A DNA stretch of 64,000 nt from Nitrospirota bacterium. Its GTDB lineage: Bacteria; Nitrospirota; Thermodesulfovibrionia; Thermodesulfovibrionales; SM23-35. The notes beneath the pieces were generated by a model. It was not told where the DNA came from, made no database searches, and worked only from the letters and a program-made list of their open reading frames with translations. The stretch is taken from assembly GCA_040757475.1 (NCBI GenBank), contig JBFLWW010000004.1:31676-95675 (forward strand), written 5' to 3'. This document shows, in pieces, positions 4,814 to 34,947 of the stretch. Each line of letters begins with the position of its first letter. Within the stretch, counting starts at the first letter, position 1. A program made the position numbers and the translations under genes.

Positions 4814-4814
4814 A

Positions 4815-6016: not shown

Positions 6017-6054
6017 CTTAATAAAATCATAGTTATACTGAGGCAAGGTGTCAA

Positions 6055-6140
6055 GGGTAAACCCCGCACCACGGCTTTACTGAGCACTTTTTATAAGTGC
6101 TACCATTTACAGCCGGGGCTTTCTGTGGTGCGGGGTAAAG
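6055..6140. repeat. nested inverted repeat in the divergent hxlA/mnmA intergenic region
   Basis: Outer arms are CCCCGCACCAC (6062-6072) and GTGGTGCGGGG (6125-6135). The inner hairpin is AGCACTT/AAGTGCT (6083-6101). Confidence 0.6.
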
Positions 6141-6189
6141 GGCTTTGGGTTGAAAATTCATCGTTAAAGCTGATAGAGTTTTATTAAAT

Positions 6190-10964: not shown

Positions 10965-11246
10965 TTAGTAGTAATTTATACTAAACCCTTTCAGGTCTCC
11001 CTGAAACGTTTCCCATTTTACATCTATATTTGTAACACTCGCGCCAGGGGGGCCGCTGTAACATTCTTTTATAGCCTGTTCAATAAGCTCTTTTTTGCCT
11101 TCAAATACTGCCTCGACCCTGCCGTCATAGAGATTTCTTACCCAGCCTTTCAGGCCGAGGTTGTATGCAATGTCTCTGGTAAATGCCCTATAAAAGACCC
11201 CCTGCACCCTACCTGAAATTAATAAATGAGCCCTTGCTTCATCCAT
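10965..11246 (-). CDS. acyP: acylphosphatase
   Basis: 93 aa with ISGRVQGVFYRAFTR…GWVRNLYDGRVE, the classic acylphosphatase signatures. Confidence 0.85.
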   Translation of the reverse strand: MDEARAHLLISGRVQGVFYRAFTRDIAYNLGLKGWVRNLYDGRVEAVFEGKKELIEQAIKECYSGPPGASVTNIDVKWETFQGDLKGFSINYY

Positions 11247-11271
11247 AATTTAAAAATTATAACATATATCG

Positions 11272-12012
11272 CTATTCTCCAAGATATGCCTTTCTTACCT
11301 GTTCATTGTTCAGTAGCTCTTCACCTTTGCCCTCAAGTGCTATCCTGCCATTTTCAAGCACATAACCCCTGTTTGAGAGTTTGAGTGCTGCACGGGCATT
11401 CTGTTCGACAAGGAGGACTGTAACCCCTTCTTCATTAATCTCTTTTATCGTCTTGAATATCTTACTCACGATGATAGGGGCAAGGCCGAGGGAAGGTTCA
11501 TCAAGAAGCAGGAGTTTCGGATTAGACATGAGGGCCCTGCCTATTGCGAGCATCTGCTGTTCTCCTCCGCTCAGTGTTCCACCTAATTGCTTATGCCTTT
11601 CTTTTAGGACAGGGAATAATTCAAAAACTTTCTCTAATTGGGTTCTTAGTTGTTGGTTTTTAGTTTTTTGACTCCTGAGTACTGACTCCTGGCTACCGAC
11701 TACCGTATATCCTCCCATCTCAAGATTCTCTCTGACAGTAAGCTTAGGGAATATCCTTCTTCCTTCAGGCACCTGGCTGATACCCATCTCAACAATCCTG
11801 TGTGGAGAAATTCCCCTGATACTTTTTCCTTCAAACAGGATATCGCCTGAGAGAGGTTTCAGGATGCCTGATATCGTCATGAGAGTTGTTGACTTGCCTG
11901 CCCCATTGCTTCCAATGAGACAGACAATCTCCCCATGTTTCACTTCGATATTTATACCCTTTAATGCCTCAATCGGCCCATAGAATGTATGAACATCAAC
12001 AAGCTTTAGCAT
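11272..12012 (-). CDS. livF: branched-chain amino acid ABC transporter ATP-binding protein LivF
   Basis: Walker A GSNGAGKSTT, signature LSGGEQQML and Walker B LLLLDEPS. ATG 12012 lies behind GAGGTGG. There is an extra heptamer-encoded segment at 11645-11706. Confidence 0.9.
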   Translation of the reverse strand: MLKLVDVHTFYGPIEALKGINIEVKHGEIVCLIGSNGAGKSTTLMTISGILKPLSGDILFEGKSIRGISPHRIVEMGISQVPEGRRIFPKLTVRENLEMGGYTVVGSQESVLRSQKTKNQQLRTQLEKVFELFPVLKERHKQLGGTLSGGEQQMLAIGRALMSNPKLLLLDEPSLGLAPIIVSKIFKTIKEINEEGVTVLLVEQNARAALKLSNRGYVLENGRIALEGKGEELLNNEQVRKAYLGE

Positions 12013-12162
12013 AAATACCACCTCATGTAAAGTTTCCTCTTACTTCTTGTGTCGGGTCGAGGATGTCGAAGACGATATCGTCGAGGGCTTTGCGGCCAGG
12101 AAGAGGGTTGAGTTTTTGCTTACAGATAGGTTGGGAGAGTTTGGAGCCAAGATCATGTGTTG

Positions 12163-12588
12163 TCATTTTATTTTTGCAAGGAAATCTCCAGCGGTTATTA
12201 CATTGACAATACTTTTAATTTTGTCAGTAAAGAAATGTGCATCACCGGTTAAAAAATAGTCAGGCTTTACATAAAGAACTGCTGCAAGGACTGGAATGTC
12301 CTTTTTATGAGTTATCATGGATTCAGCATCTTTTAATTTGTGATTATACTTTGCCCGTGGGATAATCGAAATATCAGTCAAGGCTTTTTCTATTTCAGCA
12401 ACAGCAATTTCAAAGGTTCTCTCTTTTAGATATTTCAGCTTTTTTCTTACTACCTTCCGTAATTCATCAACAATATCCTCACTTGTCACAATGTCCAGCT
12501 CGACTAAATCCAGAATCTTTGATTCATTCCCATTAAAGAAAATTCCTGAGAGTAGGATGTTCGTATCAACAAAGACCTTGTATCTCAT
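12163..12588 (-). CDS. PIN-domain toxin (VapC-like)
   Basis: N-terminal VFVDTNILL plus later acidic residues typical of PIN. It overlaps the upstream antitoxin gene by 4 nt. Confidence 0.75.
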   Translation of the reverse strand: MRYKVFVDTNILLSGIFFNGNESKILDLVELDIVTSEDIVDELRKVVRKKLKYLKERTFEIAVAEIEKALTDISIIPRAKYNHKLKDAESMITHKKDIPVLAAVLYVKPDYFLTGDAHFFTDKIKSIVNVITAGDFLAKIK

Positions 12589-12800
12589 TTGCGCATCTTC
12601 TCAAGCTCTTTCAACATCTCTGCCTCTGAGATACCTTCTTTTTTCATAAGCCATCTCAGAAATGCTCTGCTTTTGCGGGCATAAGCCTTTTTGAGCGCTG
12701 ATACAACAGCCTCCGATGCGTCAGAGAATACGCCCAGCTTAATCTCCTCATTAATGTTCCGGTAGATATCCTCTGGAATCTGAGCCACTATTTTAGGCAT
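12585..12800 (-). CDS. ribbon-helix-helix (CopG-like) antitoxin
   Basis: 71 aa. IVAQIPEDIYRNINEEIKLGVFSDASEAVVSALKK fits the RHH pattern. GGAGG lies before the ATG. Confidence 0.55.
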   Translation of the reverse strand: MPKIVAQIPEDIYRNINEEIKLGVFSDASEAVVSALKKAYARKSRAFLRWLMKKEGISEAEMLKELEKMRK

Positions 12801-12944
12801 TTTACACCTCCTTAATATCTAACTTAGCTAATAATAACAGAAACTTTACAGCTTTGCACAATTCACACACACCTTACTTTCTTAAGGTTAAAATAAAAGC
12901 CCAGGTCTCCGCTCTCATCGAGGTATAGATAAAGCATTTATTTC

Positions 12945-13637
12945 TTATGCCCTGCTTAAATGCCTCTCATAAATATCCCTCAAAAACTCATAGCCTCTTA
13001 AGCCATAGATAATGCATATCCTGTTTGCGCTGTCACTCGCTCCGGCATCATAAAGAAATTCCACGATTGACCGTATATCCTTCTGGTCGAAATCTGGGGT
13101 TATCTTCTCAAGCATCTTCAAATAAATGTCCCCGATATATTTAGCTGTTTCTTTGCTATCACCTTTATCTTTGAGACTATCTAAATTCTCTATAAAGAAG
13201 GGTGAATTAAAATCTTCGTGTACATAAGGTACTGATAACATGAGCCATTCATGAGAATCAGCATCAATCTGTGGCAATAATGCGGTCAGTTTTGAAGCAG
13301 ACGATAAAATCTGCTTGTCTTCTTTGGTCAAAGATGCCTCATCTTTGCCTTTATATTTTTCATAGAGATATCTCCAGAACTCGATTATCCTCCCTTTCAT
13401 CTTTTCATTCTCTTCTGAGCTTATTCTCAAATAAGACCTCTGCATCCAGAAAAAGCTAATAATTTCTTTAATGTGTTCGTATTTAAACTTATTAATTATT
13501 CGATTGAATAGACTTTCTGGTTTCTCGATTGACTCATGTCCTCTCAAGTAGGCTAAGGAGATATGTTGTATAAGATGTTCGTTATCACGTTTTTCTCTAA
13601 AATCATAATCAATTCCATACTGATAGTGAGGTCTCAT
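12945..13637 (-). CDS. hypothetical all-alpha protein (230 aa)
   Basis: Long ORF with no recognisable motifs. Its 5' end abuts the livF-fragment junction (~13680), so it may be N-terminally truncated. Confidence 0.45.
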   Translation of the reverse strand: MRPHYQYGIDYDFREKRDNEHLIQHISLAYLRGHESIEKPESLFNRIINKFKYEHIKEIISFFWMQRSYLRISSEENEKMKGRIIEFWRYLYEKYKGKDEASLTKEDKQILSSASKLTALLPQIDADSHEWLMLSVPYVHEDFNSPFFIENLDSLKDKGDSKETAKYIGDIYLKMLEKITPDFDQKDIRSIVEFLYDAGASDSANRICIIYGLRGYEFLRDIYERHLSRA

Positions 13638-13678
13638 TAAATTTGGTAGATAATGTGCCTGTCCCTATTTTGCTGTTT

Positions 13679-13812
13679 CTGAGAGTTGTTGACTTGCCTG
13701 CCCCATTGCTTCCAATAAGACAAACAATCTCCCCTTGCTTTATATCGATATTAATGCCCTTCAGGGCTTCGATAGGACCGTAAAATGTATGAACGTCTGT
13801 AAGTTTTAGCAT
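13679..13812 (-). pseudogene. livF: 5' fragment of a second livF allele (first ~44 codons)
   Basis: MLKLTDVHTFYGPIEALKGINIDIKQGEIVCLIGSNGAGKSTTL, then homology stops abruptly. It is ~84% nt identical to 11879-12012, and the similarity continues ~75 nt upstream of the ATG. Confidence 0.85.
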
Positions 13813-13924
13813 AAATACCACACTGTGTAAAATTTTATCTTACTTCTTATCTATTTTTATTTTCTTCTTGTATCAGCCAAGGACATCGAAAAAACACCTA
13901 CTACAAATCATTACCTTTCAAAAT

Positions 13925-14314
13925 TTAGAACAAAATTTTCCCTTCACCTCCAATAGGCAGCGGTCGAACACGTATGCGAGTCTGTTCAAGGACAACTATG
14001 CTTCCTTGTTTCAAAGACTCTTCAATTGTCGGTAGATTTTTTAAAAGTAATCTAAGTTGATTCTCAGGACGTCTCTCTGAACCTCGTCGAAATAGGATAA
14101 TAGAGGGCTTTATTTCTGTTCTCATAGCAAGGATGGTGCCGAAGTCAGTATCAGTAGATATGATAATCCGCTCTTCTGTAGTGGCCTTATCAAAAATTTC
14201 TTCATCTTCAGCTGTCTGCATTTTATAATCACGAACATGTACAGCATCATGCCCAGCTTCTCGTAATCCTTTTGCTACAAAGGGAGATAAAGCGTTGTCT
14301 ATTAAAAACCTCAT
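13925..14314 (-). CDS. DUF5615-type (PIN-like/Mut7-C-like) toxin
   Basis: [27 protein letters not shown]…ISTDTDFG. It is the usual partner of DUF433 and overlaps it by 4 nt. Confidence 0.7.
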
Positions 14315-14541
14315 GTGGTTACCAAAGGCAATTCTCTTTCACGGATAGCTTCAGCTGCATATTGAAGGGCCTCTCGTATATCTTCTTTCTCCAGGTCAGG
14401 AAAAGCTTTCAAAATCTCTTCTTCGCTCATACCGTCAGCAACCATGCCAACTACAGTTGCAACAGGTATACGTAATCCACGAATACAAGGCACCCCACCC
14501 ATTTGTTTGGGATTAACTGTAATTCTTGTAAATTTCATCAT
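14311..14541 (-). CDS. DUF433-type antitoxin
   Basis: 76 aa. [49 protein letters not shown] is the canonical DUF433 pattern. Confidence 0.75.
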
Positions 14542-14733
14542 CCACCTCCTTTAATATTTTATTACATTCAGGTGCATTCTTCCTACAATCACAACCCCTG
14601 CAAATCATTGCTTTAGTCTACTCCTCCAATAAGCTTTTCCACTTCTTTCTTGGCTTTTTCTAAAAGTTCCTTTGCCTCTTTGCGTGCCTCACCAAATTCT
14701 CCTTTAAAGGCTTTGGATAAGATTGAGTGAGTT

Positions 14734-16485
14734 CTATAATATACAATTACATTTTATTTTCTTATAATCCATCTTAAGGCTACTCCACATTTTCATTGTC
14801 TCTTTACAAAGAGCAACGTTGGAATAATTATATTTTGACTTTAAATGTTCTATTACCGTGGAATACATTGTAAGTCGGGTCTGGAAATCAATCCTTCTGC
14901 CCCAATTAGAGGATTCTCTTAAATACTTAACCCAACTTTTATCTGAACATCCATTTATAGTACTCTGAAGCCCCCTTAAAGACCCTAAAGTAATCCTTTC
15001 TGGGGCAAGATTCTTAAAAATCAAATCTACTAATTGTAAATAAGATTCCTTCCATCCATCTATTGGAACCATCGGGTCTATCCTAATCCGAACCCCATAT
15101 CCTGTTTGATAGAGTTTCTTAGCTACTTCAACTCTCTTCAAAACAGGCGGTGCCTTCTTCTCCCACATTTTGGCAACAGGTATTGCATTGAGACTGAAGC
15201 TTATAATTGCTTGATTATGAGGCTCGATCTCTAAAAGGTTTTTTACATTCGAGGACTTGGTTAAGAATAAGACCTTGTGAATCTTCTGAGTTTCAAAAAT
15301 GGGGATAATAAATTTAGAAAATGGATGTCCTGAATTTTCATGCATTAATGAATCAGCGATTTCGCCTGTATTTAGTATTTCTGGCATCTCTACCTCCTCT
15401 AAAAATCTTCTGGTATGCAGTTCTATTTTCTCATAAGACTTGACCACTGGTTTTGGACCATTTGGGTGAAACCTGAAAGTCCCTTTTAAATAGCACCAAC
15501 TACAATCAAAAGGACATCCATAAGCCCATTTGAGTTCTAGGAAGTGGGGACAGACTACATCAGTTGAATTTGAATTTTCAGGAAAAGGCGTCTTATCAAA
15601 TCTTGTAATTATAGAGCCATCATTGACTCGCTCAACTAATTTTTCAATTCTTCTATTTAAGAGTTTGTAATCTTTGTATATTACTTTCGGTTTGGTAGAA
15701 AGATATACTGCCGAACTCTCGCGCACAAAACCGCCAGGGTTATTATTCAGCGAGAGCTTTATTTGACCTGTAGGAGAAATTTTGCTGATCTCTTTCCAGA
15801 ATTTATGACCCAGCAGGTGTTTACTCGCAAATAGTAGATAGTATAATGGCAGGTTTTTTTGACTGCTCCTTATTAATATCTCATCTCCAGATTTAATTTC
15901 GCTGTAACCAAGTTTGCTAAGGTTACCCTTATAATAATCTATTAGGTTCTTTTCTATGTGGGTAGATGTGAGCTGGCCTATATTTTTGATATCTTTTGGA
16001 AAAAGTTGTCGCCAGTCTTTGTCTCCAATATAATCATCTAAAATACTATGTGACTGTTTTATATATCTTGATAGATTTCTTTTAATATCCATCCCCTCTG
16101 GGAATGTAATAACCAGATCAATCCTTCGGTCTTCGGTCAATTTTTGGAGTGTCTCAAATTTAATATGTAATCCTGTAGGGTCAACAACTGCAAGGCTTAA
16201 CGCCCTCTCTGGTATTTCACTGGCAATATCATCAATTTTTTCATTACAGTCTCCTTGAATTATACTGACTTTATCTTTGATGGGTGATCTCTCAACCCTC
16301 TTTTTTAAAGCATTCACAGCCTCGGAGTCTAACTCAATCATAAAATATCGTTTAAAAGGATATTTAACAGAAAGAGAAATCAATGCTGAGCCATTAATTT
16401 CTTCGGCGGTTTTTCTTACTCTACATTTTCCAGAACCTGCAAATAAATCAATGTAATATAATTCTCCTCTCCATTTATTCTTCAT
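14734..16485 (-). CDS. fusion protein: TcmP-like (three-Cys-motif partner, SAM-MTase-like) N-half plus SplB/DNA-photolyase-like radical-SAM C-half
   Basis: The N-half has YIDLFAGSGKC and VVDPTG. The C-half has WAYGCPFDCSWCYL (CX3CX2C) and RIRIDPMVP. The start ATG overlaps the stop of the small upstream ORF (ATGA). Confidence 0.65.
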   Translation of the reverse strand: MKNKWRGELYYIDLFAGSGKCRVRKTAEEINGSALISLSVKYPFKRYFMIELDSEAVNALKKRVERSPIKDKVSIIQGDCNEKIDDIASEIPERALSLAVVDPTGLHIKFETLQKLTEDRRIDLVITFPEGMDIKRNLSRYIKQSHSILDDYIGDKDWRQLFPKDIKNIGQLTSTHIEKNLIDYYKGNLSKLGYSEIKSGDEILIRSSQKNLPLYYLLFASKHLLGHKFWKEISKISPTGQIKLSLNNNPGGFVRESSAVYLSTKPKVIYKDYKLLNRRIEKLVERVNDGSIITRFDKTPFPENSNSTDVVCPHFLELKWAYGCPFDCSWCYLKGTFRFHPNGPKPVVKSYEKIELHTRRFLEEVEMPEILNTGEIADSLMHENSGHPFSKFIIPIFETQKIHKVLFLTKSSNVKNLLEIEPHNQAIISFSLNAIPVAKMWEKKAPPVLKRVEVAKKLYQTGYGVRIRIDPMVPIDGWKESYLQLVDLIFKNLAPERITLGSLRGLQSTINGCSDKSWVKYLRESSNWGRRIDFQTRLTMYSTVIEHLKSKYNYSNVALCKETMKMWSSLKMDYKKIKCNCIL

Positions 16486-16640
16486 TGCTGCAGTGAAAAT
16501 CTCAAAATACCGCCTAAATAGAAATACTTATCCTTTGCCCAAAGTCCTACGCATCTGACCGGTAAACCATCAGAACCTTTTTGGACATTACATATGCTTT
16601 CAGGGGCATTTTTCTTATAATCACAGTCTCTACAAATCAT
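16482..16640 (-). CDS. small CxxC ORF (52 aa), possibly the frameshifted N-terminus of the downstream fusion gene
   Basis: MICRDCDYKKNAPESICNV…GLWAKDKYFYLGG…. Its ATG overlaps the R-M stop (ATGA) and its TGA overlaps the next ATG. It is below the ORF-track length cutoff. Confidence 0.4.
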   Translation of the reverse strand: MICRDCDYKKNAPESICNVQKGSDGLPVRCVGLWAKDKYFYLGGILRFSLQQ

Positions 16641-18382
16641 TGCTTTTTATAGATATCATCGATCTTTTCTTGCAATTCGACGGTTAACCTAATAGCCTTT
16701 GCAACTTTTATATAATGATTTATCTCATCAAGTGATAATTTTCGACCTTTTCTATCCTTCAAATATTTCTCCATTACCTGATAAGAACCAATACGGTATT
16801 CCCAGACTTCTTTAGAAACTCCCTCAAAATATTGCTTCTTGTTTAGAAAAACCCTCTGGTTAGCTTCATCATAAACGACCTTTTCAACTTTATTTGAGCC
16901 ACCTTCTGGAAAACCGATTTCGGTCCTATCAAGCGACGGATGCTTCAGCAAATGAAGGTCAACAAGTTCTTTCCCAAGATTGCTTAGTTTCTTAAATGAC
17001 TCACGATTTGAAGGCAAAGGGATTCTCGGAAAATCTATCTTGAGAAATTCCTCATATCGTTTCCGGTAAGTCGGAGAATAAAGGATTGCATAAATATAAT
17101 AGAAAATTTGTTCAGGTGTTGGAGACTTCTTAAGGGCTTTTGTTAACTGCTCAATTAATGTGGGAGAAATATTAGGCTTTTTAATATGATATTCTGCCAT
17201 TGGCTCAAAGAGAAGCATAAAGGTTTTGAGTGATTTTTTAGGATTGTCTCTTTTGGTCTCATAAATATAAAGTGGAAAGAAATAATTCTGGTCACCAATT
17301 ATATGTATATCTCCAATATTATTACATACAAAAGCAGGAATTCCAAATGTTTCTGGCATTCTTCTCGTTGTTACTAATCCGATATTTTCCTCAAAAAAGT
17401 TTTTCATTAAATCCCATCTGTCACATCCCCTGTCAATCAAATCTGGCAGATAGCAAATATATCTATTATCAAAAGGGCGATAGGCATATAGTCTGATAAA
17501 GTCTTTCCAGTCAGCCTTCTTTGCCTTTTCTTTTGCGGTGTTTAATTTCCAGTCACGCGTATCTTTTAAATCCAGTGCCTGCCTTATCAGTTCATAAGGC
17601 AAGTTGCTGGTAAAAGTTCTCATCCTCTGTTTGATTTCTTCTCTTGTAAATCCAACAACAAAATGGTCACGGTGAGTTTTCACACCACTCGACCATTCTT
17701 TAAATATCTCAGTCACCTTCCAAAACTTTTCATACTCAGCCTGCAAGGCAAAATCTTTTGGAATAAAGAAATAGTAAGGTGAAACAGGTTCAAGCTCTTG
17801 CCACCGTGTTGTTATCACATCGTTTTCAAAAAGGTATGCATATTTTTCCTTTCTCAGTCCCCAGAGGTCGGCATAATAGACTTTTTTCTTTTTCTGAGAT
17901 TTTTCTAATTTTACATATAAAGCAACAGAAACTCCCTGCTGGATGTCAAAAACATTCTCATCTCTGCCACCTTCAGGGGTCCTTTCTCCGATTCTCGATG
18001 AGCCGTGGAGGTTAAGAATATAAATCTCATCAAAGGCATCTAAAAGCTTTCTCCTCATGCCGCGATGGATTACTCCGGAAAGATAAGAGTTATTGGTAAT
18101 AAAACCTAACACCCCCTTGCCTGCCTGGTTTATCTTCCAGTGGGCAAAGCGGATGAACTTTATATAATCGTCAGAAAGGGGCTGGATATTCCGCTCATCC
18201 CTCACATCCTCTTTATAATCCTCCATCAGTTTTTCGATAAATTCTGACTTATTCTCTGAGCTGACAGAATAGGGAGGATTCCCGAAGATAACAAGGATAG
18301 GGACTTTTTCCTTTATCCTCTTTGCCTCCTGTCCTTCTTTTGCAAGGTCAATAAGAAAACTTACCTGCTTGGGCTCTTTCAT
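16637..18382 (-). CDS. type IIG/ISP-like R-M enzyme, C-terminal part (NPPY catalytic motif plus type-ISP-like specificity domain)
   Basis: VIFGNPPYSVSS (motif IV). C-terminal W-EYRIGSYQVMEKYLKDRKGRKLSLDE tail. It is in the same frame as 18407-19729, separated by one TAA plus 8 sense codons. Confidence 0.8.
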   Translation of the reverse strand: MKEPKQVSFLIDLAKEGQEAKRIKEKVPILVIFGNPPYSVSSENKSEFIEKLMEDYKEDVRDERNIQPLSDDYIKFIRFAHWKINQAGKGVLGFITNNSYLSGVIHRGMRRKLLDAFDEIYILNLHGSSRIGERTPEGGRDENVFDIQQGVSVALYVKLEKSQKKKKVYYADLWGLRKEKYAYLFENDVITTRWQELEPVSPYYFFIPKDFALQAEYEKFWKVTEIFKEWSSGVKTHRDHFVVGFTREEIKQRMRTFTSNLPYELIRQALDLKDTRDWKLNTAKEKAKKADWKDFIRLYAYRPFDNRYICYLPDLIDRGCDRWDLMKNFFEENIGLVTTRRMPETFGIPAFVCNNIGDIHIIGDQNYFFPLYIYETKRDNPKKSLKTFMLLFEPMAEYHIKKPNISPTLIEQLTKALKKSPTPEQIFYYIYAILYSPTYRKRYEEFLKIDFPRIPLPSNRESFKKLSNLGKELVDLHLLKHPSLDRTEIGFPEGGSNKVEKVVYDEANQRVFLNKKQYFEGVSKEVWEYRIGSYQVMEKYLKDRKGRKLSLDEINHYIKVAKAIRLTVELQEKIDDIYKKQ

Positions 18383-18406
18383 CTCTAAGGTATTGGTGAG
18401 ATAGAA

Positions 18407-19729
18407 TTAAAACCTCTCACCCTCTTTGAAGCGATAACCCATCTCTTCGAGAACCATGGAGACCTTGAAATGTCCTACAGTATAAGGAGCAACAAGAATC
18501 TCAAAGGCATGAAAATGGGGCAGAATATGCTCTTCCATGTAAGATTTAATAAGCCCTTCCTTCTTTTTCTCTTCCAGTTCTTTCTGAACCTGTTTGATTG
18601 CCTGAACTACAAATGTGAGAGTTCCAGCAGCAGGGTCAAGGAGAGTTATATCATCTGTGGCAAGTCCTTCGACTTTCCCGAACCTTTCTTTCAACAATTT
18701 ATGAATTGATCTCACAATGTATGAAACAACAGGCAGTGGTGTATAGTAGACCCCTAATCTTTCTCTCTCCTTTGGGTTATAAGTTGCGAGAAAGGTCTCG
18801 TAAAAATGAATTACAGGGTCTTCATCCCATCGAGTGGTCTTGAATTCTTTAAGTATTGAAGAAATCTCCGCTTTTTCAAGAACCTGACTTATATCATCAA
18901 CAATCCATGTTAGTGACTCAGGGAAATGAGGACCTGTCATAGAATGGAATATCTCTTTGAGCAAGGGTAAACTTTCAGGTATGAATTTCCATGCAATCTC
19001 TCTTTTAAACCCGTTTCGAACCTTCATCCTTGCAGCAAAAAGCCCGTAAGTTATTGTCTGTGCATAAAGGTCAGCAAACCTATCTTTTGTCAAAGTTTCT
19101 ATAAGTTCTTCCTGAAAAGCTTTATAAAACCTTGTTACTTCTTCATTTTCTCTTGAAAGCTCATCCTGTAAGATGTGTTCAAGGAATCGAGTTCTCTTTG
19201 CAAGTTGTACGGAAAGGTCAGATGATTTCTGGATCTCAGGAGTTGAGAATAAGAAGAATTTTTGTAAAAGATTAAGAAATGAATCCAATTTTTCAGGGGC
19301 AGGAGGATGTTTCAAACTCTTTAAAGTGAACTGGCGTCCTGCTTCAACCTTATCTATAAGGTTTCCATATCTATATAACCTGAATTCCAGGAAATTCGTT
19401 AAGATAAGGTTTGGTAAAGAATCCCTGTATCTCTTGAGCTGATCTGAATCTTCAATCTCACTGAGGTTTGTATCTGGTGTCTTTGCTTCAATATAGCCTA
19501 TTATTTCACCGTTCTTACCGATACGAAAATCGGGGATGCCTACTTCTGTCTTTCTTGGGAGAACAAGCACACTTGCAAAAGCTTCTAATCTAAAAATATG
19601 TGAAAACTCTTCAAAAAATCTCTTAAGGGTTTGTAGTTCTTCAACTGCTCCACCTGATGCTGGAAGAATTTTAAGCTCTCTTCCGAGAAGGTCTAATAAA
19701 GGTGTAATTGAAGCTAAAGGATTAGGCAT
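18407..19729 (-). CDS. type IIG/ISP-like R-M enzyme, N-terminal part (PD-ExK-like motif plus AdoMet-binding half of the N6-adenine MTase)
   Basis: IPDFRIGKNGEIIGYIEAK (D…EAK), FADLYAQTITYGLFAAR, GVYYTP and LLDPAAGTLTF (motif I). It ends at an in-frame TAA (18407-18409). Confidence 0.8.
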   Translation of the reverse strand: MPNPLASITPLLDLLGRELKILPASGGAVEELQTLKRFFEEFSHIFRLEAFASVLVLPRKTEVGIPDFRIGKNGEIIGYIEAKTPDTNLSEIEDSDQLKRYRDSLPNLILTNFLEFRLYRYGNLIDKVEAGRQFTLKSLKHPPAPEKLDSFLNLLQKFFLFSTPEIQKSSDLSVQLAKRTRFLEHILQDELSRENEEVTRFYKAFQEELIETLTKDRFADLYAQTITYGLFAARMKVRNGFKREIAWKFIPESLPLLKEIFHSMTGPHFPESLTWIVDDISQVLEKAEISSILKEFKTTRWDEDPVIHFYETFLATYNPKERERLGVYYTPLPVVSYIVRSIHKLLKERFGKVEGLATDDITLLDPAAGTLTFVVQAIKQVQKELEEKKKEGLIKSYMEEHILPHFHAFEILVAPYTVGHFKVSMVLEEMGYRFKEGERF

Positions 19730-19759
19730 CGCTTAAAAGTATATCAAATACTCTAACAT

Positions 19760-20280
19760 TATTTTCCATTGTGCCCTTATATGAAATCAAATAGATAATC
19801 ACTTGGATTCTCTTTTGGCCATCCTGAGATATATTCTAAAATTGCATCTGCAATCCCTTTAAAATCATTTAATTTGTAGGACGACGAGACTATCAGTACA
19901 CCTTTCCTGTTCGTCCAATCTCATGCACGCTAATGGCATTTATGCCTTTCTCTCTAAGAATAACTGCTATTTGTGGGCTCAGGTCTTCATCCAGAAGGAG
20001 TTTCATCCCTTCTTCCTAACAAATGGAAGTTCAGAATGAGCGTTCTCTTTACTCCATGCCCTGTTTTTCTCTATCAAACTTTCTGTCTCATCGGGGTATG
20101 TCTTTGCATAGCCGATTGCTGCCATAATCTGTCTGTCGGTGAGCCAGTGAAACGCATCTTTTAATGCCCTGATATCTCTGATGTTAGACTTGAGAAAGTC
20201 TCTTTTTTCATATGTAAAAGACTTTTCACATCAGCTAAGGTCTCTTTGTCTATACGGATACTTTTTACAATGCTCCCCAT
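19760..20280 (-). pseudogene. decayed DUF433/DUF5615 toxin-antitoxin pair
   Basis: From ATG 20280 (GGAGGATAAA upstream) there is a 39-codon ORF. A shifted frame then reads …HWLTDRQIMAAIGYAKTYPDETESLIEKN (DUF433-like). MKLLLDEDLSPQIAVILREKGINAISVHEI follows (DUF5615-like, stop after 37 aa, 19893-20006). Confidence 0.55.
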
Positions 20281-20306
20281 TTTATCCTCCATAAATTGAT
20301 GTATAC

Positions 20307-20329
20307 ATAATATTACATTGTAATATTAT
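20307..20329. promoter_or_regulatory. perfect 11-1-11 palindrome upstream of the decayed TA operon (candidate operator)
   Basis: ATAATATTACA-T-TGTAATATTAT lies 27-49 nt upstream of ATG 20280, directly after the livG stop. Confidence 0.4.
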
Positions 20330-20347
20330 TGCCAAGATGTCTTAGCA

Positions 20348-21121
20348 CTAATGCTCTTTTCCAAGATATGCCTCTATAACCATCTGATCCCTTCTTATAT
20401 TAGCAGGGAGTCCTTCTGCAATCTTTACACCGTGGTCGAGCACAGCAATCCAGTCAGATATTCCCATAACCACCTGCATATCATGCTCTATCAGCAAGAC
20501 CGTCTTGCCGAGCTCTTTTAAATTTTTTATGAGACTCATAATCTCTGATGTCTCCTGGGGGTTCATCCCTGCTGTAGGTTCATCGAGCAATATCAACGAC
20601 GGCTCTGTTGCTAATGCCCTTGCAATCTCCAGCCTTCTCTGCGCACCGTATGGAAGGTTTGCGGAGATTGTATCAGCATAGTCTGATAGACCCACAAGCT
20701 CGAGATATTCGATGGATTTTTCTTTTATAATCTTCTCCTCATCACGAAACTTTTTCCATCGGGTGATCGAACCGATAAGACCTGAATGTGTTCTGTGATG
20801 TTGTGCAACCATCACATTCTCTATAACAGACATCTCTTTAAAAAGTCTAATATTCTGGAATGTCCTTGATATACCGAGCCTGACAATGCTATGTGGTGGA
20901 AGTCCGGTAAGGTTAGTATTAGAGAAATAGATTCTCCCTTTTGTGGGTTTTGTAAGTCCAGTGAGGCAGTTAAAGATTGTTGTCTTACCTGCACCATTTG
21001 GCCCTATGATGCTCATTATGATACCCTCTTTTACCCTGAAGCTCACCTCTTCAACAGCCTTTATTCCGCCGAAGTGTTTTGATAAATCCCTAACTTCTAA
21101 GAGATACACCTTTACCTCCAA
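20348..21121 (-). CDS. livG: branched-chain amino acid ABC transporter ATP-binding protein LivG
   Basis: Walker A GPNGAGKTT, signature LPYGAQRRLEIA, Walker B LILLDEPTAG and the LivG-specific extra segment. Confidence 0.9.
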   Translation of the reverse strand: MEVKVYLLEVRDLSKHFGGIKAVEEVSFRVKEGIIMSIIGPNGAGKTTIFNCLTGLTKPTKGRIYFSNTNLTGLPPHSIVRLGISRTFQNIRLFKEMSVIENVMVAQHHRTHSGLIGSITRWKKFRDEEKIIKEKSIEYLELVGLSDYADTISANLPYGAQRRLEIARALATEPSLILLDEPTAGMNPQETSEIMSLIKNLKELGKTVLLIEHDMQVVMGISDWIAVLDHGVKIAEGLPANIRRDQMVIEAYLGKEH

Positions 21122-22184
21122 GTAATCCCTGCGGTCTGAATATCATCAGGAGTACGAGTCCACTTCCGAGTGCAAGCATCCTATAAAGTTGAACCTCGCG
21201 CAGAATCTCAGGGAGTAAGACTAAAATGATAGCACCCAAAATAACACCAGGAATGCTTCCGAGCCCACCGAGGATGACCATGATCAGTATCAGGACAGAC
21301 TCCATAAATGTAAAACTTTCTGGAGATACAAATTGCATCTTGCCTGCGAATATGACGCCTGCAAATCCAGCCCAAAAGGCACCAAAGGCAAATGCATAGA
21401 GTTTGTACATGGTTGTGTTTATGCCCATGGTAGATGAGGCAATCTCATCTTCTCTTATAGCAACCCATGCCCTTCCTATCCTTGAAGAATAGACCCTCCT
21501 TGTTATGAAAACAGTCAAGATAACAAATAATAAAACAAAATAGTAGTAGAATGAGAGTTTACTTAGAGATATTGACATAATTACCGGAGGAGCAATCCCT
21601 GATATCCCATTTGGTCCCCTTGTCATACTATCCCAGTTATTCAGGATGAGTCGCACTATTTCACCAAAACCCAGTGTAACAATTGCGAGGTAATCACCCC
21701 TCAGTCGCAATGCAGGTATTGCAAGGAGGAATCCAGCAACTGTTGTAAGTCCTATAGAAAAAGGTAAGGCTGACCAGAAATCAAGTCCGAATTTTGTATT
21801 CAGAAGGGCATAGGTATAAGCACCTATCGCATAGAATGCCACAAACCCTAAGTTCAGAAGGCCTGCGAAACCGACCACCACATTCAGCCCGAGTGCAAGG
21901 ATGATATAAATACCTGCGAGTATAGCCACATCAATAAAGTAGTCTGTGGTAATAAACGGGAAGATAAAGAGGGATAATAGTAACAAGTAACGGGTGACGA
22001 GTAACAAGTAACGGGTCAGAGGTATAGCAGGAAACTTGGCCTTTTTGAGGTGCTTTAAAAGGGAATTTGTAAAAGGGATAATGATTGAAAGTGCAATGAA
22101 AAGTATTGCTGCTGCCTTAATCCCTTTAAATGGAAGAAAGAGTATGGAGAACCACAGAGCGATTAATATGAATCTTACCCTCAT
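21090..22184 (-). CDS. livM: branched-chain amino acid ABC transporter permease LivM
   Basis: Polytopic membrane protein with the LivM pattern (GFAGLLNLGFVAFYAIGAY…). The N-terminal region contains heptamer-encoded PLTRYLLLVTRYLLLL. Confidence 0.9.
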   Translation of the reverse strand: MRVRFILIALWFSILFLPFKGIKAAAILFIALSIIIPFTNSLLKHLKKAKFPAIPLTRYLLLVTRYLLLLSLFIFPFITTDYFIDVAILAGIYIILALGLNVVVGFAGLLNLGFVAFYAIGAYTYALLNTKFGLDFWSALPFSIGLTTVAGFLLAIPALRLRGDYLAIVTLGFGEIVRLILNNWDSMTRGPNGISGIAPPVIMSISLSKLSFYYYFVLLFVILTVFITRRVYSSRIGRAWVAIREDEIASSTMGINTTMYKLYAFAFGAFWAGFAGVIFAGKMQFVSPESFTFMESVLILIMVILGGLGSIPGVILGAIILVLLPEILREVQLYRMLALGSGLVLLMIFRPQGLLGGKGVSLRS

Positions 22185-23098
22185 ACCGCCCTGCCGAAGA
22201 GCCCCCCTGGTTTGAGAAGAAGGATTATTATCAGGATAATAAACGCATAGGCATCCTTGTATTCACTCGATATGTAACTTGCACCGAGGCTTTCGACAAG
22301 TCCGAGGAGAATACCTCCAAACATTGCACCTGGTATGCTGCCTATTCCACCGAGGACCGCAGCAGTAAAAGCCTTTATGCCTGCAATATACCCGATAAAA
22401 TAGTTGACAAGGCCATAGTACATGGCAACCATAAGACCTGCTACAGCAGCAAGGCCCGAACCGATGATGAATGTCATTGAGATAACAGTATCTATGTTGA
22501 TGCCCACAAGAGAGGCCATTGTCTTGTCCTGTGCAACCGCCCTCATTGCCTTACCCATTCTCGTCTTTATCACAAATAGATGCAGGGATATCATCAATAT
22601 TGTAGATGTGAGTATAATAAAGAGTTGCAGGTAGGTCATCCTCACTGACATGAACTCGAATCCGGCGATTCCAAATAGATGTGGAAAGACCTTGTCTGTA
22701 GCACCCTGTGTGAGCATTATATAGTTCTGCAGGAATATGGAAACACCAATAGCGCTTATGAGTGGGCTCAACCGAGGAGCTTTTCTCAGAGGCTTGTAGG
22801 CTATCTTTTCTATTGTAAACCCGTAAGAGGAACAAAAGATTATGGATAGAAGAAAAGTAAGCATCAGGCTGAGTGGAAGGCTGTAGGAGGTTAGTCCAAT
22901 GGCTGTAAAAAATCCGAGAAATACGATGCCAAGGTATGCACCGAGCATATAAATCTCACCATGGGCAAAATTGATAAGTTCGAGGATGCCGTAGACCATA
23001 GTATACCCAAGTGCGATGAGTGCATACACACCACCTAATGTCAGGCCATTTATTAATTGCTGTAAAAACACAGAGAATTTTAACAGAAAAAATACCAA
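22181..23098 (-). CDS. livH: branched-chain amino acid ABC transporter permease LivH
   Basis: LQQLINGLTLGGVYALIALGYTMVYG is the typical LivH N-terminus. It overlaps livM by 4 nt. Confidence 0.9.
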   Translation of the reverse strand: MVFFLLKFSVFLQQLINGLTLGGVYALIALGYTMVYGILELINFAHGEIYMLGAYLGIVFLGFFTAIGLTSYSLPLSLMLTFLLSIIFCSSYGFTIEKIAYKPLRKAPRLSPLISAIGVSIFLQNYIMLTQGATDKVFPHLFGIAGFEFMSVRMTYLQLFIILTSTILMISLHLFVIKTRMGKAMRAVAQDKTMASLVGINIDTVISMTFIIGSGLAAVAGLMVAMYYGLVNYFIGYIAGIKAFTAAVLGGIGSIPGAMFGGILLGLVESLGASYISSEYKDAYAFIILIIILLLKPGGLFGRAV

Positions 23099-23158
23099 AG
23101 AGCAACTCTACACAGAACATTGACTTACAGATACATATTGTATATAAAATATCCATAA

Positions 23159-24586
23159 ATGCTCAGAAATTATTTCCTTAACCTCTCACTGAATAGAAAA
23201 CTAATCGGGATGATGCTCTTCCTCAGCCTCATCCTCGTCTCGATACTGCTCTTTTTTTATGGCCAGACAGAAAAGGCCCTGCTTGCAGAACTCGAAAAAC
23301 AGACAGCAGACCTTTCAAAAGCGATTCAGGTTGGTGTTGAAGAGGTCACAGGCAGTGGCCCTACCGATGAGATGCGGCTTTACAATTATCTCCAGAAATT
23401 GAATGCTAAAGGTGTAAAAGAGATTTCTATTATCAGTAATACAGATGAGATTATTGCGAGCACAAACCCGATGAAGGTTGGAGAACCTGTCAGCCCGAAG
23501 AAAAAGCAGCGCATCATAAAGGCAGAACTTGGAGAGCCTGTTTCCAAAGAGGGAAAGGTCTATAATGTTATCCTCCCAGTAGTTGCCGGTAATGCGCATT
23601 ACGGGTATATTCATCTGAAAATAAATATAGATGACTTTTCAAAAGTCCTCAGGATGAGTGCTATAAAAAGGGTGGCTGCAGCCTTTTTTGTATTCGGCCT
23701 TGGCGTAATTATCACAATGTTTCTTTCATGGATGTACACAAAGCCGATACATAATATAGTTAATGCTGCACAGAGGGTGGCAGCAGGTGACCTCAATCAG
23801 GACCTTACAACAGACAGGAAGGATGAGATAGGAGAGCTGACACAGAGTTTTAGCTTTATGGTTCAGAAACTCAGGGAGGAACGTGCACTCGAGGAAAAAC
23901 TACGAGAGGCCGAACACCTGTCAGGGATAGGGCAGCTTTCAAAAAGTATAGCACATGAATTGAGGAATCCCCTTAATTTTATAAGCCTGAGTATAGACCA
24001 TTTAAGGGAAAGATATGCACCATCAGAAAGGGATAAAAAAGAGCAGTTTGAATCACTCATGGCAAGTATAAAACAGGAGATACAGCGACTCAATAACCTT
24101 GTTAGAGATTTCCTTGACTATGGAAAGCCGTTAAAACTGGATATCCAGGAGACTGATGTCAGTAAGATTATCGATGACCTTATAGAATTAGTACGAGTAA
24201 AGGCGCAAAAGGATGGTATCAAGATACATCGTCAATTTGGAGAGCTTCCCAAACTCTATTTAGACCCTGAATTAATCAAGACATGTATATTTAATGTTAT
24301 CCTCAACGCATTTCAGGCAATGCCTGCTGGAGGAGACCTTACTGTAAGCACAGAGGCATCTGACAACAGGTTTTCTATTATCATTGAGGATACAGGTATC
24401 GGTGTTTCTAAGGAGAATCTGCCAAAGGTCTTTGAGCCATTTTTCTCAACGAGGAATACAGGACTTGGCCTCGGTCTCGCTATGACAAAAAGGGTTGTCG
24501 AGGAACACAGCGGCAGGGTATATTTCCAAAGTGAGGAAGGTAAAGGGAGCACTGTAATAATATCATTACCTGTAAAAAAAATTTAA
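23159..24586 (+). CDS. sensor histidine kinase (TM, HAMP, HisKA, HATPase_c)
   Basis: HAMP-like segment, H-box SIAHELRNPL, N-box NVILNAFQA, G-boxes EDTGIGV and GLGLGLA. Confidence 0.85.
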   Translation: MLRNYFLNLSLNRKLIGMMLFLSLILVSILLFFYGQTEKALLAELEKQTADLSKAIQVGVEEVTGSGPTDEMRLYNYLQKLNAKGVKEISIISNTDEIIASTNPMKVGEPVSPKKKQRIIKAELGEPVSKEGKVYNVILPVVAGNAHYGYIHLKINIDDFSKVLRMSAIKRVAAAFFVFGLGVIITMFLSWMYTKPIHNIVNAAQRVAAGDLNQDLTTDRKDEIGELTQSFSFMVQKLREERALEEKLREAEHLSGIGQLSKSIAHELRNPLNFISLSIDHLRERYAPSERDKKEQFESLMASIKQEIQRLNNLVRDFLDYGKPLKLDIQETDVSKIIDDLIELVRVKAQKDGIKIHRQFGELPKLYLDPELIKTCIFNVILNAFQAMPAGGDLTVSTEASDNRFSIIIEDTGIGVSKENLPKVFEPFFSTRNTGLGLGLAMTKRVVEEHSGRVYFQSEEGKGSTVIISLPVKKI

Positions 24587-24678
24587 AATTTAAAATTAAA
24601 AATGCAAAATTAAGGAATTTTTGAATTTTGATTTGAAATTTTGAGTTTTTCATTTTGCATTTTGAATTTTTTAAATAG
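24580..24678. repeat. heptanucleotide-repeat inverted element (AAAATTT AAAATTT AAAATTA AAAATGC … ATTTTGC ATTTTGA)
   Basis: Period-7 units sit between the kinase stop and the regulator start. The A-rich half is followed by a complementary T-rich half. Confidence 0.7.
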
Positions 24679-24689
24679 GGAGGAACAAA

Positions 24690-26066
24690 TTGGCTGTTGT
24701 GCTCGTGGTTGATGATGAACCACTCCAGCGTGATATTCTCAAGACAATACTCGATGATGAGGGATATGAAACCTATACTGCCTCATCAGGTGAGGAAGGG
24801 CTGAGGATTGTAAAAGAGTTTAACCCTGATGTCGTTCTGACTGACCTCAAGATGGAAGGCATGAATGGTATAGAATTTATTGAATCCATGCCTAAGGAGC
24901 CTTTTGAGCCATCCATGGTCATTATGACCGCATATGGGACTATCTCATCGGCTGTGGAGGCAATTAAAAAGGGTGCATTTGACTATCTCACAAAGCCTCT
25001 TAATAAGGATGCGCTTCTGATAACAGTTAAAAAGGCAGTTGAAAGGGCAAATCTGCTGAAAGAAAATTTACAGCTTCAGAAGGCCCTGTTTGACAGATTC
25101 AAGATAGAAGGTATTATCGGTCATTCAAGAAAAATGGTGGAAGCAGTCGAGATTATGAAAAAAGTCTCTTCAAGCCCAGCAACAGTACTTATACTTGGAG
25201 AAAGTGGAACAGGTAAAGAGCTTGTGGCAAGAGCCATACACTATAACAGCCTGAGGCGTACAAAGCCATTCACAGCAATAAACTGTGCTGCAATTCCAGA
25301 GAACCTTCTTGAAAGTGAACTCTTTGGCTATGAAATAGGGGCATTTACCGGTGCCCTTTCGAGGAGAATAGGGCTTATCGAGGCTACAAACGGCGGTACA
25401 CTTTTCCTGGACGAAGTCGGAGACCTCCCCCAGATGACCCAGTCCAAGATATTGCGTGTACTACAGGACAAAGAGATAAGGAGGCTTGGCGGAAGGGATA
25501 CAATAAAGGTTGATGTAAGGATTATTACTGCAACAAACAGGGACATTGAGAAGGAATTGAGTAAGGGGGCGTTCAGAGAGGACCTTTATTACAGGCTGAA
25601 AGTCGTGACAATAGAGCTTCCACCCCTCCGAGAAAGGAAGGAAGACATACCTGAACTCATACTTTTCTTCCTTAAGAAGTACAATCAGGAGTTCAGTAAG
25701 AGGATAAAGAGGATTGATGAAGATGCAATGAAGGCGCTCATAGAATACCACTGGCCAGGGAATATAAGGCAACTTGAGTCTGTTATAGAGCGCGCAGTGC
25801 TTATGTGCGAGACTTCTTCTATAAACCTTAAAGACATAAGGGGCGAACTCAGGGTTTCAGGGGGGACAGGGTTCCTTGATTTCGATCTTCCAGATGATGG
25901 GATAATTTTTGAGGAGATGGAGAAAGAGCTCATGAAAAAGGCAATGACAAAAGCTGGTGGTGTGGCTGCAAAAGCGGCAAGGCTTCTCGGGATGAGCTAT
26001 AAGACCTTCTGGTACAGGTGGGAGAAGTTTAATCTCCATTCTCCAAAAAAGGATACCCTTTCCTAA
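24690..26066 (+). CDS. sigma-54-dependent response regulator (NtrC/AtoC family)
   Basis: The receiver domain has VLVVDDE…DLKMEGMNG. The AAA+ domain has GESGTGKE and ESELFGYEIGAFTGA (GAFTGA). There is a C-terminal Fis-type HTH. TTG start behind AGGGAGG. Confidence 0.9.
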   Translation: MAVVLVVDDEPLQRDILKTILDDEGYETYTASSGEEGLRIVKEFNPDVVLTDLKMEGMNGIEFIESMPKEPFEPSMVIMTAYGTISSAVEAIKKGAFDYLTKPLNKDALLITVKKAVERANLLKENLQLQKALFDRFKIEGIIGHSRKMVEAVEIMKKVSSSPATVLILGESGTGKELVARAIHYNSLRRTKPFTAINCAAIPENLLESELFGYEIGAFTGALSRRIGLIEATNGGTLFLDEVGDLPQMTQSKILRVLQDKEIRRLGGRDTIKVDVRIITATNRDIEKELSKGAFREDLYYRLKVVTIELPPLRERKEDIPELILFFLKKYNQEFSKRIKRIDEDAMKALIEYHWPGNIRQLESVIERAVLMCETSSINLKDIRGELRVSGGTGFLDFDLPDDGIIFEEMEKELMKKAMTKAGGVAAKAARLLGMSYKTFWYRWEKFNLHSPKKDTLS

Positions 26067-34479: not shown

Positions 34480-34555
34480 TGGTGGACGGTAGGGGATTCG
34501 AACCCCCGACTTCCACGTTGCGAACGTGGTGCTCTCCCACCTGAGCTAACCGCCC
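34480..34555 (-). tRNA. tRNA-Ala (CGC)
   Basis: Cloverleaf by hand: GGGCGGT acceptor with G3:U70, anticodon loop TTCGCAA, GGTTCGAATCC T-arm, encoded CCA. Confidence 0.9.
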
Positions 34556-34738
34556 ATTTAAAACACTGATCAGTTAACAGTGGACAGTGAATAGTAAAAT
34601 ATGAAAGATAATACAGTCAACTCTAAATGCTGAATATAAGGGCATGTTGACACAAATTCTTATAAACTCTTATAATTTATAGCCTCTAAGCAAATTTCGC
34701 TCTGTAAAATTTGCAGTGATTAGTTATCAGTCGTTAGT

Positions 34739-34815
<77 letters not shown>

Positions 34816-34947
34816 TGCAAATTTCGCAGAGCGAAATTTGCAGTGAATAGTTATTAGTGATTCGTGTTTAGTTTAAATTGAAAAATTTATTCTATTTTTG
34901 ATTTATACTATTAACTAATCACTATTCACTGATAACTGTCTTTAATC

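Follow-up and report, generated by a model that had tools for sequence, protein, structure and literature searches.

The 64,000-nucleotide stretch of DNA analysed here, called the window below, comes from a Nitrospirota bacterium of the SM23-35 lineage (assembly GCA_040757475.1, contig JBFLWW010000004.1, positions 31,676 to 95,675) and contains a liv ABC-transporter operon, in which livG and livF are separated by 8.3 kb of accessory DNA (12022-20347). In our interpretation, to which we assign a probability of about 0.7, this DNA is a lineage-specific, integrase-free accessory island in a hotspot between livG and livF; most of its modules are decayed, it was assembled and remodelled by recombination, and the livF gene behind it is functional, probably transcribed by read-through. 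An earlier note on this DNA, made by a model from the sequence alone, had proposed that an accessory block divides the operon between livG and livF, that the block is co-oriented with the operon, and that no integrase, transposase or tRNA target is visible. Genes, strands and coordinates all agree with the first of these statements, the recognisable genes and gene fragments between livG and livF all lie on the minus strand like the operon itself, and the domain and tRNA scans described below agree with the third. What the earlier note missed is the pseudogenised state of most of the cargo and a number of further relics (a DUF3800 stub, an Eco57I tail and copies of the 5' end of a tcmP gene).

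Occupied and empty livG-livF junctions

The contiguity of livG and livF, which the earlier note had taken as the normal state, was confirmed in a set of 80 genomic loci with a LivF homologue: 77 of these have both genes, and in about 73 of the 77 the gap is shorter than 250 nt. Scans of genome and metagenome collections with LivF yielded relatives of at most 71% identity only; closer relatives were obtained from a larger protein database and from a 47-aa relic open reading frame (ORF) of the island. In the nearer relatives the livG-livF gap is 0-177 nt. The livG stop and the livF start abut as TAATG in locus L164 (LivF 91% identical), where the acylphosphatase gene (acyP) and bioB follow downstream as in the window; the gap is 31 nt in L166/L167 (LivF 86%) and 177 nt in L168 (LivF 87%). 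With uninterrupted junctions in all of these, the insert is not a universal feature of the clade; the island is lineage-specific, being absent or different in the relatives. The frame around it is conserved: livHMG is 64-78% identical to its counterparts in Nitrospirota relatives with the same gene order, and the acyP-bioB synteny downstream of livF is common to L164 and to the sister genome L169.

L169, an independent assembly (Logan SRR32167787), matches the window at 98.8% identity over livF-acyP-bioB and has a rearranged island. A DUF2283-containing segment stands there in place of three elements of the window (a displaced livF 5' end, a Dsr1 remnant and the DUF3800 stub), and a chimeric copy of the tcmP 5' end is followed directly by DUF433/DUF5615. 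The two islands share, at 99% identity, a segment with an RHH-like/PIN gene pair and the Eco57I relic. An insertion sequence (IS, 5654-6650) lies 45 nt upstream of the livF start in L169; it encodes a DDE_Tnp_1 transposase on the opposite strand, is bounded by terminal inverted repeats (GAGTTTGGTGAATAAT...) and has duplicated 12 bp of its target, GACACAAGAAGT. Altogether, the islands of the window and of its sister genome differ by at least five structural changes.

More distant versions carry different cargo upstream of livF (L170 and L165, LivF 86-88% identical). In L170 it amounts to at least 8.7 kb, all co-oriented, and comprises DUF5615, two unknown genes, an intact Eco57I-type type IIG gene, SocA_Panacea and a B12-type radical SAM-like gene. 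The module at the left end of the L170 island is intact and 87% identical at the DNA level to the left-end module of the window, whereas livF is only about 80% identical between the two. The radical SAM-like gene of L170 (7626-8711, 361 aa, B12-binding) ends at the livF start; L165 (403-673) has a truncated form of it, fused to livF. The 10 nt preceding the livF ATG in the window (GGTGGTATTT, 12013-12022) match this gene-livF junction in L170 and L165; similarity beyond these 10 nt was not significant, and we did not retain the livF leader as a remnant of the L170 gene. In the still more distant L106 a 320-nt insert (2290-2610) lies exactly in the livG-livF gap and, with its terminal inverted repeats GTGTCATTCCGGCTTGTCCGGAATCC ... 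GAATCCGGACAGGCCGGAATGACA, it looks like a miniature inverted-repeat transposable element. The livG/livF junction is a recurrent insertion hotspot in this clade of sulfate-reducer-type Nitrospirota, and has the attributes of a defence hotspot: conserved adjacent flanks, cargo that differs between relatives, and cargo rich in defence and toxin-antitoxin genes with atypical composition.

The earlier note had proposed to profile GC content and k-mers, and by both the island is clearly atypical. Its GC content is 0.373, as opposed to 0.417 in the rest of the window, and its tetranucleotide distance is 0.23-0.26, which is 3.6-5 standard deviations above the rest of the window (0.152 +/- 0.021, maximum 0.211). 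The GC content at third codon positions is 0.28-0.38 in the island genes and 0.40-0.46 in liv, bioB and acyP; the exception is the 71-aa RHH-like ORF, with 0.50. Scans with Pfam, NCBIfam and PADLOC found no integrase, transposase or recombinase domain in the island ORFs, and no integrase was called in the L169 or L170 versions, L169 having only the IS transposase. The island does not sit at a tRNA or tmRNA gene, the nearest tRNA (34480) being 14 kb off, and it has no Rfam matches. We found no repeat bounding the whole of 12022-20347; a 169-nt livF repeat bounds the right-hand 1.6 kb only.

The features of the operon and the island are listed below in the direction of transcription.

22181-23098, minus strand: livH, ORF
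21090-22184, minus strand: livM, ORF
20348-21121, minus strand: livG, ORF
20339-20348, minus strand: possible trace of an ancestral livF start, GTGCTAAGAC, overlapping the livG stop codon
20307-20335, minus strand: promoter-like site TTGGCA-17-TATTAT, a consensus match that overlaps the 23-nt palindrome ATAATATTACAATGTAATATTAT
19790-20292, minus strand: decayed left-end toxin-antitoxin module (antitoxin and DUF5615 remnant)
20003-20292, minus strand: putative antitoxin of about 96 aa, frameshifted, no Pfam hit after repair
about 19790-20006, minus strand: DUF5615 remnant (Pfam 1.6e-6) with a 119-nt internal deletion
16637-19729, minus strand: type IIG restriction-modification (R-M) gene, one frame of 1030 codons (PADLOC REase_MTase_IIG PDLC03610; Pfam)
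14734-16640, minus strand: TcmP (three-Cys-motif partner, TIGR04474) fused to an SPL-like radical SAM domain (Pfam SPL)
14615-14733, minus strand: 3' end of an unknown ORF, preceding the second tcmP 5' copy
14567-14614, minus strand: second tcmP 5' copy (-6 to +42), 83% identical to 16599-16646 (repeat D3)
14311-14541, minus strand: DUF433 (Pfam), forming an intact pair with DUF5615 (13925-14314)
13901-13918, minus strand: third tcmP 5' copy, truncated (repeat D11)
13680-13848, minus strand: livF', a displaced livF leader and 5' end, 82% identical to 11880-12048 (repeat D1)
13638-13679: filler of 42 nt between livF' and the Dsr1 remnant
12945-13637, minus strand: C-terminal remnant of a Dsr1-like gene, 230-aa ORF (PADLOC Dsr1, PDLC04166, 1.3e-43)
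12878-12937, minus strand: 5' stub of a DUF3800 gene (MLYLYLDESGDLGF..., first 20 or so codons), following the Dsr1 remnant
12585-12800, minus strand: RHH-like ORF, 71 aa, without Pfam or other family hit
12163-12588, minus strand: PIN toxin (PIN_2 1e-9; TIGR00305 1.8e-8)
12023-12166, minus strand: C-terminal tail of an Eco57I-family type IIG R-M/methyltransferase, 47-codon ORF (phmmer)
12013-12048, minus strand: livF leader with the ribosome-binding site GAGGTGG
11272-12012, minus strand: livF, intact (NCBIfam LivF 1.5e-84)

Most of the components named in the earlier note stand: the PIN gene, the livF duplicate, DUF433/DUF5615, the TcmP/radical SAM fusion, the split R-M gene and the DUF5615 remnant. 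The RHH (ribbon-helix-helix) label given to the 71-aa ORF is unverified. The supposed orphan protein of 230 aa turned out to be the remnant of a Dsr1-like gene, and of the decayed second "DUF433/DUF5615" pair only the DUF5615 half could be recognised.

Relics and scars within the island

The clearest trace of recombination involving the operon itself is livF'. The 169-nt repeat runs from position -27 in the leader to nucleotide +133 of livF, counted from the ATG (+142 from an upstream GTG), and thus covers codons 1-44 from the ATG or 1-47 from the GTG. The two copies differ at 23 of 142 coding nucleotides; 19 of the 23 differences are at third codon positions and, counted as codon changes, 15 are synonymous and 4 non-synonymous. 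Because the differences are biased to synonymous ones, the copies diverged as working genes in different lineages, rather than by decay in place. Both end in the same 37 nt of P-loop coding sequence (13680-13716 and 11880-11916), without a single difference, after a stretch of 96 nt with 76% identity; in other relatives 2-8 of these 37 nt do not match livF'. A homologous crossover within the longest block of identity would leave such a pattern, and livF' marks an import from a related lineage by recombination. No sampled relative was closer to livF' than the window's own livF: the nearest ones differ from it at 4 residues, as the intact copy does, and the donor lineage would lie outside the sampled relatives. 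An extension of the repeat upstream, as a second relic copy or an IS footprint (13849-13900), was not significant (402 of 1000 shuffles). At its other end livF' abuts the 42-nt filler and then the truncated Dsr1-like gene in another frame, an arrangement that can be read as an illegitimate joint.

The Dsr1-like remnant aligns to model positions 1014-1223 of 1227, and its homologues reach about 170 aa further towards the N-terminus. A defence-associated sirtuin 1 (Dsr1) has an N-terminal SIR2 NADase and a large C-terminal region in about 1200 aa; in contrast to such a protein, the piece in the window lacks the SIR2 effector domain and some 80% of the sequence and is a remnant only. Its close homologues in the databases are mostly fragments themselves or parts of a broken 3.9-kb gene: in L163 the homologous C-terminal piece is the last fragment of a gene of about 3.9 kb, which is broken and begins with SIR2_2. 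In other metagenomes C-terminal pieces of this family are fused to unrelated 5' pieces, such as the N-terminus of UppS (P0015) or TIR_2 (P0040), and truncation of the family at junctions with housekeeping genes seems to be frequent (P0015, P0040, P0042). The DUF3800 stub that follows the remnant is identical to the start of the DUF3800 gene (PF12686) found after the Dsr1-like gene in L162; the order Dsr1-like then DUF3800 recurs in L162 at 3912-5394.

Next to livF lies the Eco57I relic. Searched with phmmer against the whole library, it gave 21 hits at E<=1e-3, all of which align close to the C-terminal end of the protein found; the long hits carry Eco57I, MmeI_Mtase and N6_Mtase domains. The relic is 90% identical at the amino acid level in L169. 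We considered that it might be the 3' end of the DUF3800 gene and rejected this, as DUF3800 C-termini look different and the relic matches Eco57I-type tails. A specific relationship to the tail of the Eco57I-type gene of L170 was not significant (91 of 300 shuffles).

A frameshift at about 16501-16520, near codon 44, splits one gene into the small Cys-rich ORF (16482-16640) and the 583-aa ORF that follows it. The TcmP match (TIGR04474) improved from 7.6e-42 to 8.1e-47 upon repair of this frameshift, and from 144 to 160 bits, covering model positions 2-258. The N-terminal domain also matches the PADLOC candidate PDC-M41A (6.8e-26), and the radical SAM part matches Pfam SPL (9.5e-18). TcmP is a family of unknown function; the combination of TcmP with an SPL-like radical SAM partner is present here, and the two are fused in one frame. 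An N-terminal extension of 33 aa, rich in cysteine (MICRDCDYKKNAPESICNVQKGSDGLPVRC..., 16541-16640), lies outside the TIGR04474 model. The segment that occurs three times in the island corresponds to the start of this extension, i.e. to about 14 codons and 6 nt upstream of them.

The three copies of the tcmP 5' end (16599-16646, 14567-14614 and 13901-13918) occur nowhere else in the 64-kb window. No match as good as the second copy would be expected by chance (0 expected), and the short third copy is regarded as real, rather than a chance match, because the same copy is longer in L169, where it extends to about +35. L169 lacks the 2032 nt between the first two copies, i.e. the body of the tcmP-radical SAM gene, and in its single tcmP 5' copy, located at the first position, the first two copies of the window are combined as a mosaic. 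Such a chimeric copy has the form expected of the product of a deletion between direct repeats. The DUF433/DUF5615 pair located between the second and third copies is intact in the window, with Pfam scores of 9e-26 and 6.2e-27 and overlapping stop and start; L169 has the pair at 90% identity, with DUF5615 frameshifted.

The type IIG R-M gene, which the earlier note had described as split, is a single frame of 1030 codons interrupted by one in-frame TAA at 18407-18409, where L169 has CAA. Its two halves are co-linear on PADLOC PDLC03610 (1.8e-91 and 1.5e-143), and the Pfam domains Type_ISP_C, Eco57I and N6_Mtase were found in it. The first 34 codons of the frame (19628-19729) are the N-terminus of an unrelated 380-aa gene, which is intact in L170 (559-1701). 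Since L169 (1-247) keeps the R-M gene's own start within a 227-nt segment missing from the window, the gene of the window is an in-frame fusion made by deletion. In the first 1.7 kb or so of the gene the window and L169 are 99-100% identical; identity then falls to 50-60% for about 550 nt and recovers to 90-97% towards the 3' end. The divergent part is the Type_ISP_C specificity region (about 17100-17650), in place of which L169 has another one (2273-2683), and the drop in identity amounts to a swap of the target-recognition domain. The L169 gene is broken by frameshifts of its own, different from the TAA of the window; the R-M gene would thus have been inactivated independently in two sister lineages, and the enzyme of the window is probably inactive.

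At the left end, next to livG, the putative antitoxin of the decayed module did not qualify as DUF433: no Pfam hit was obtained, also after repair of the frameshift. The promoter-like site at 20307-20335 may be the operator/promoter of this first toxin-antitoxin module; it is a consensus match alone, and the counts of such sites in the region are at chance level. The ten nucleotides at the livG stop codon (GTGCTAAGAC) are, in fixed position, identical at 8 of 10 sites to ATGCTTAGAC of L164, the sequence that comes after the livG stop there (TAATG). A match as good in fixed position has a probability of about 1e-3 by chance, local alignment without this constraint gave no significant result, and the identity is no more than suggestive of a trace of the ancestral livF start. 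A longer livF 5' trace beyond the livG stop was searched for by local alignment and was not significant; just the fixed-position 10-nt match was retained.

Most of the cargo thus looks like wreckage, and only the RHH-like/PIN and DUF433/DUF5615 pairs look intact. Both have the predicted architecture of type II toxin-antitoxin modules, i.e. adjacent, co-directional small genes with overlapping stop and start and with the toxin domain second. It is possible that these two pairs stabilise the segment.

livF and its surroundings

The livF gene itself is still functional and under purifying selection: its dN/dS is 0.05-0.14 in comparisons with six relatives, and 0.14 (14 synonymous and 7 non-synonymous differences) in the comparison with L169. 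The ATG at 12012 is preceded by a good ribosome-binding site. The earlier note had asked how livF is transcribed. Promoter- and terminator-like sites in 11000-23400 were not above the level of shuffled sequence, and none is prominent upstream of livF. The strict co-orientation of the cargo in three versions of the island suggests read-through from island promoters, for instance that of the RHH-like/PIN pair; this is our most likely guess, and a need for read-through would in turn explain why all cargo is co-oriented with the operon.

LivF and its relatives fall into two length classes of 246 and 236 aa, and the LivF of the window belongs to the longer class. In the NCBIfam alignment residues 4-248 fall on model positions 5-236, which implies about 12 extra residues. 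On the other side of the operon, no livK/livJ-type binding-protein gene adjoins livH (23159-26066); a divergent histidine kinase and a sigma-54 response regulator are found there instead, as in L168. Elsewhere in the window there are sulfite reductase-type genes (41229-47632), including a DsrC-like gene (41957-42292) whose product ends in PKPTGCV, a DsrMK-like gene and a DsrB-like gene (45194-46300), and a cluster of six tRNA genes (34480-35394). Dissimilatory sulfite reductase-type genes and the tRNA cluster fit a Thermodesulfovibrionia-type Nitrospirota host.

Proposed routes of assembly and related systems

The earlier note had suggested that the island was built by recombination rather than by a classical integrative element, and the lack of an integrase, transposase or tRNA target, the livF' scar, the tcmP repeat, the swapped R-M specificity region, the foreign N-terminus of the R-M gene and a left end that is closer to L170 (87%) than livF is (about 80%) support this. 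Imported, diverged copies of gene 5' ends are present in the island, as judged from the comparison of the copies. In the mechanism that we propose, homologous recombination would be anchored on shared segments, among them the 5' end of livF, with a crossover in the 37-nt identical P-loop block; illegitimate joins would connect imported segments with resident DNA; and deletions between short direct repeats would remove parts of the array. No resident site-specific recombinase would be needed. At most junctions a 5' fragment of the left-hand gene is joined to a whole gene or a 3' fragment, a pattern that is produced by deletions within a co-oriented array. The structural differences between island versions are observed directly, and the mechanism is what we infer from the scars.

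Several points weigh against this interpretation. The mechanism is deduced from scars, and the donor sequences are not among the sampled relatives. No relative has both island junctions on one contig, the L169 and L170 sequences beginning inside the island, and the left junction with the 10-nt trace of the livF start is seen in the window alone. Errors in the consensus of a metagenome-assembled genome (MAG) could account for the nonsense codon and the frameshift. The 169-nt livF repeat, with its identical core abutting foreign DNA, also resembles the attL/attR sites of an element that targets the 5' end of a gene. As to livF, the promoter and terminator scans were uninformative, which makes read-through a guess, and the L169 IS just upstream of the gene complicates simple read-through.

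The resemblance to att sites leads to a rival explanation, in which the island goes back to one or more classical integrative elements that used the 5' end of livF as target, with an att core in the P-loop block, and whose integrase was later lost; livF' would then be attL, and the restored 5' end of livF would be attR. Some integrative and conjugative or mobilizable elements do integrate into the 5' end of a protein-coding gene and supply a replacement for it. Like them, the island shows a displaced, diverged 5' fragment upstream, an identical core (the 37-nt block) at the boundary with foreign DNA, and a reconstituted, intact gene downstream, and the heavy decay elsewhere makes loss of an integrase plausible. 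Unlike them, the island has no integrase or recombinase domain, either in the window or in the L169 and L170 versions; the repeat flanks the right-hand 1.6 kb and not the whole island; the putative attL abuts the filler and the truncated Dsr1-like gene instead of the end of an element; and the remaining displaced 5' fragments have their breakpoints in unrelated genes and at heterogeneous positions, which argues against a single site-specific core. We consider this explanation rather improbable, although an ancient founding event mediated by an integrase is possible. An integron-like cassette platform, with the 48-nt repeat (AAAGCAATGATTTGYAG...) as recombination site and a recombinase encoded elsewhere, appears very improbable. 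Three direct copies in one orientation do delimit two modules (tcmP-radical SAM and DUF433/DUF5615), and L169 differs by exactly one module between two copies; however, the repeat consists of tcmP coding sequence (start codon and 14 codons) and is probably not a structured attC-like site, its copies are confined to the island within the 64-kb window, no intI-like gene is present, and the chimeric copy of L169 corresponds to an ordinary homologous deletion between direct repeats.

It could also be argued that the contig is a chimera, joining liv genes to unrelated accessory DNA, as the sequence is that of a MAG (protein hits bear the label "MAG: Nitrospirota bacterium") and the left junction was found in no other sequence. 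We find this barely credible, because in the independent L169 assembly, at 97-99% identity, the R-M gene, DUF433/DUF5615, RHH-like/PIN and the relic are likewise linked to livF-acyP-bioB, and L170 has a homologue of the left-end module and livF on one contig. Another proposal, an ancient, fixed operon architecture in which the island genes are effectively core genes, draws on the fact that the island, or parts of it, predate the split of the window and L169, and that the left module is common with L170. Against it stand the loci without an island (L164, L166/L167, L168), a content that differs even between sister genomes, the atypical composition and the preponderance of pseudogenes, and its probability is close to nil.

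A more specific version of integrase-free assembly would be directional stacking: imported modules bring along a 5' end of the downstream gene for homologous anchoring, insert just upstream of this gene, and displace its old 5' end. This could explain why a 5' piece of the left-hand gene has survived at nearly every junction (the trace of the livF start, the 34 codons of the 380-aa gene, the two tcmP copies, livF' and the DUF3800 stub) and why the cargo is co-oriented in three island versions. We regard directional stacking as a speculative and, for now, unlikely possibility. If true, it would mirror the C-terminal displacement of Rhs and type VI secretion system (T6SS) proteins; its cargo would be defence and toxin-antitoxin genes, its site a housekeeping operon, and it would be limited to insertions that allow the necessary read-through into livF.

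Irrespective of directional stacking, the closest described mechanism for the island, by analogy, seems to be homology-facilitated illegitimate recombination (HFIR), which was proposed for T6SS effector-immunity arrays and Rhs C-terminal displacement and combines one homologous anchor with one illegitimate join (PMC5361080). The similarities are stacked orphan fragments in the same orientation, a conserved segment duplicated beside new cargo, and the lack of an integrase; such an anchor is present here in the duplicated livF 5' end, which lies beside imported DNA and whose copy diverged under purifying selection. There are also differences. In HFIR arrays the anchor is the conserved upstream 5' part, and displaced 3' ends pile up downstream together with immunity genes, whereas in the liv island the downstream gene (livF, tcmP) provides the anchor with its 5' end, and it is 5' fragments that are displaced and pile up upstream; and the cargo consists of defence and toxin-antitoxin genes instead of toxin-immunity pairs.

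It is instructive to compare the liv island with the core defence hotspots, such as cDHS1/2 of P. aeruginosa (PMC10250203) or hotspot #37 and others of E. coli (PMC10121019). Homologous recombination on conserved flanks was proposed as a route of transfer for core defence hotspots (PMC10250203), and in hotspot #37, among the cases that are neither satellites nor integrative mobilizable elements, 68% are without a detectable mobile genetic element (PMC10121019). As in these hotspots, variable low-GC defence cargo lies between conserved genes, which are adjacent where the cargo is absent, and a mobility gene is often missing. Unlike in them, the flanks of the liv island are consecutive genes of one ABC-transporter operon instead of two transcription units, and abut when the site is empty (TAATG in L164), and the cargo is strictly co-oriented, small (8.3 kb), mostly pseudogenised, and found in uncultured Nitrospirota. 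The liv island belongs to a known class, that of integrase-free defence hotspots flanked by core genes, and is not a new kind of system; what is unusual is its position inside an operon and the clarity of the recombination scars.

For annotation, the locus is a warning: what passes for an "orphan" ORF in such an island may be left over from a large defence gene, here a Dsr1-like gene. It also provides a well-resolved natural example of an island built and eroded without an integrase, and it shows that a variable defence and toxin-antitoxin hotspot can occupy the interior of an operon, between two genes for ATPases, without destroying the downstream gene.

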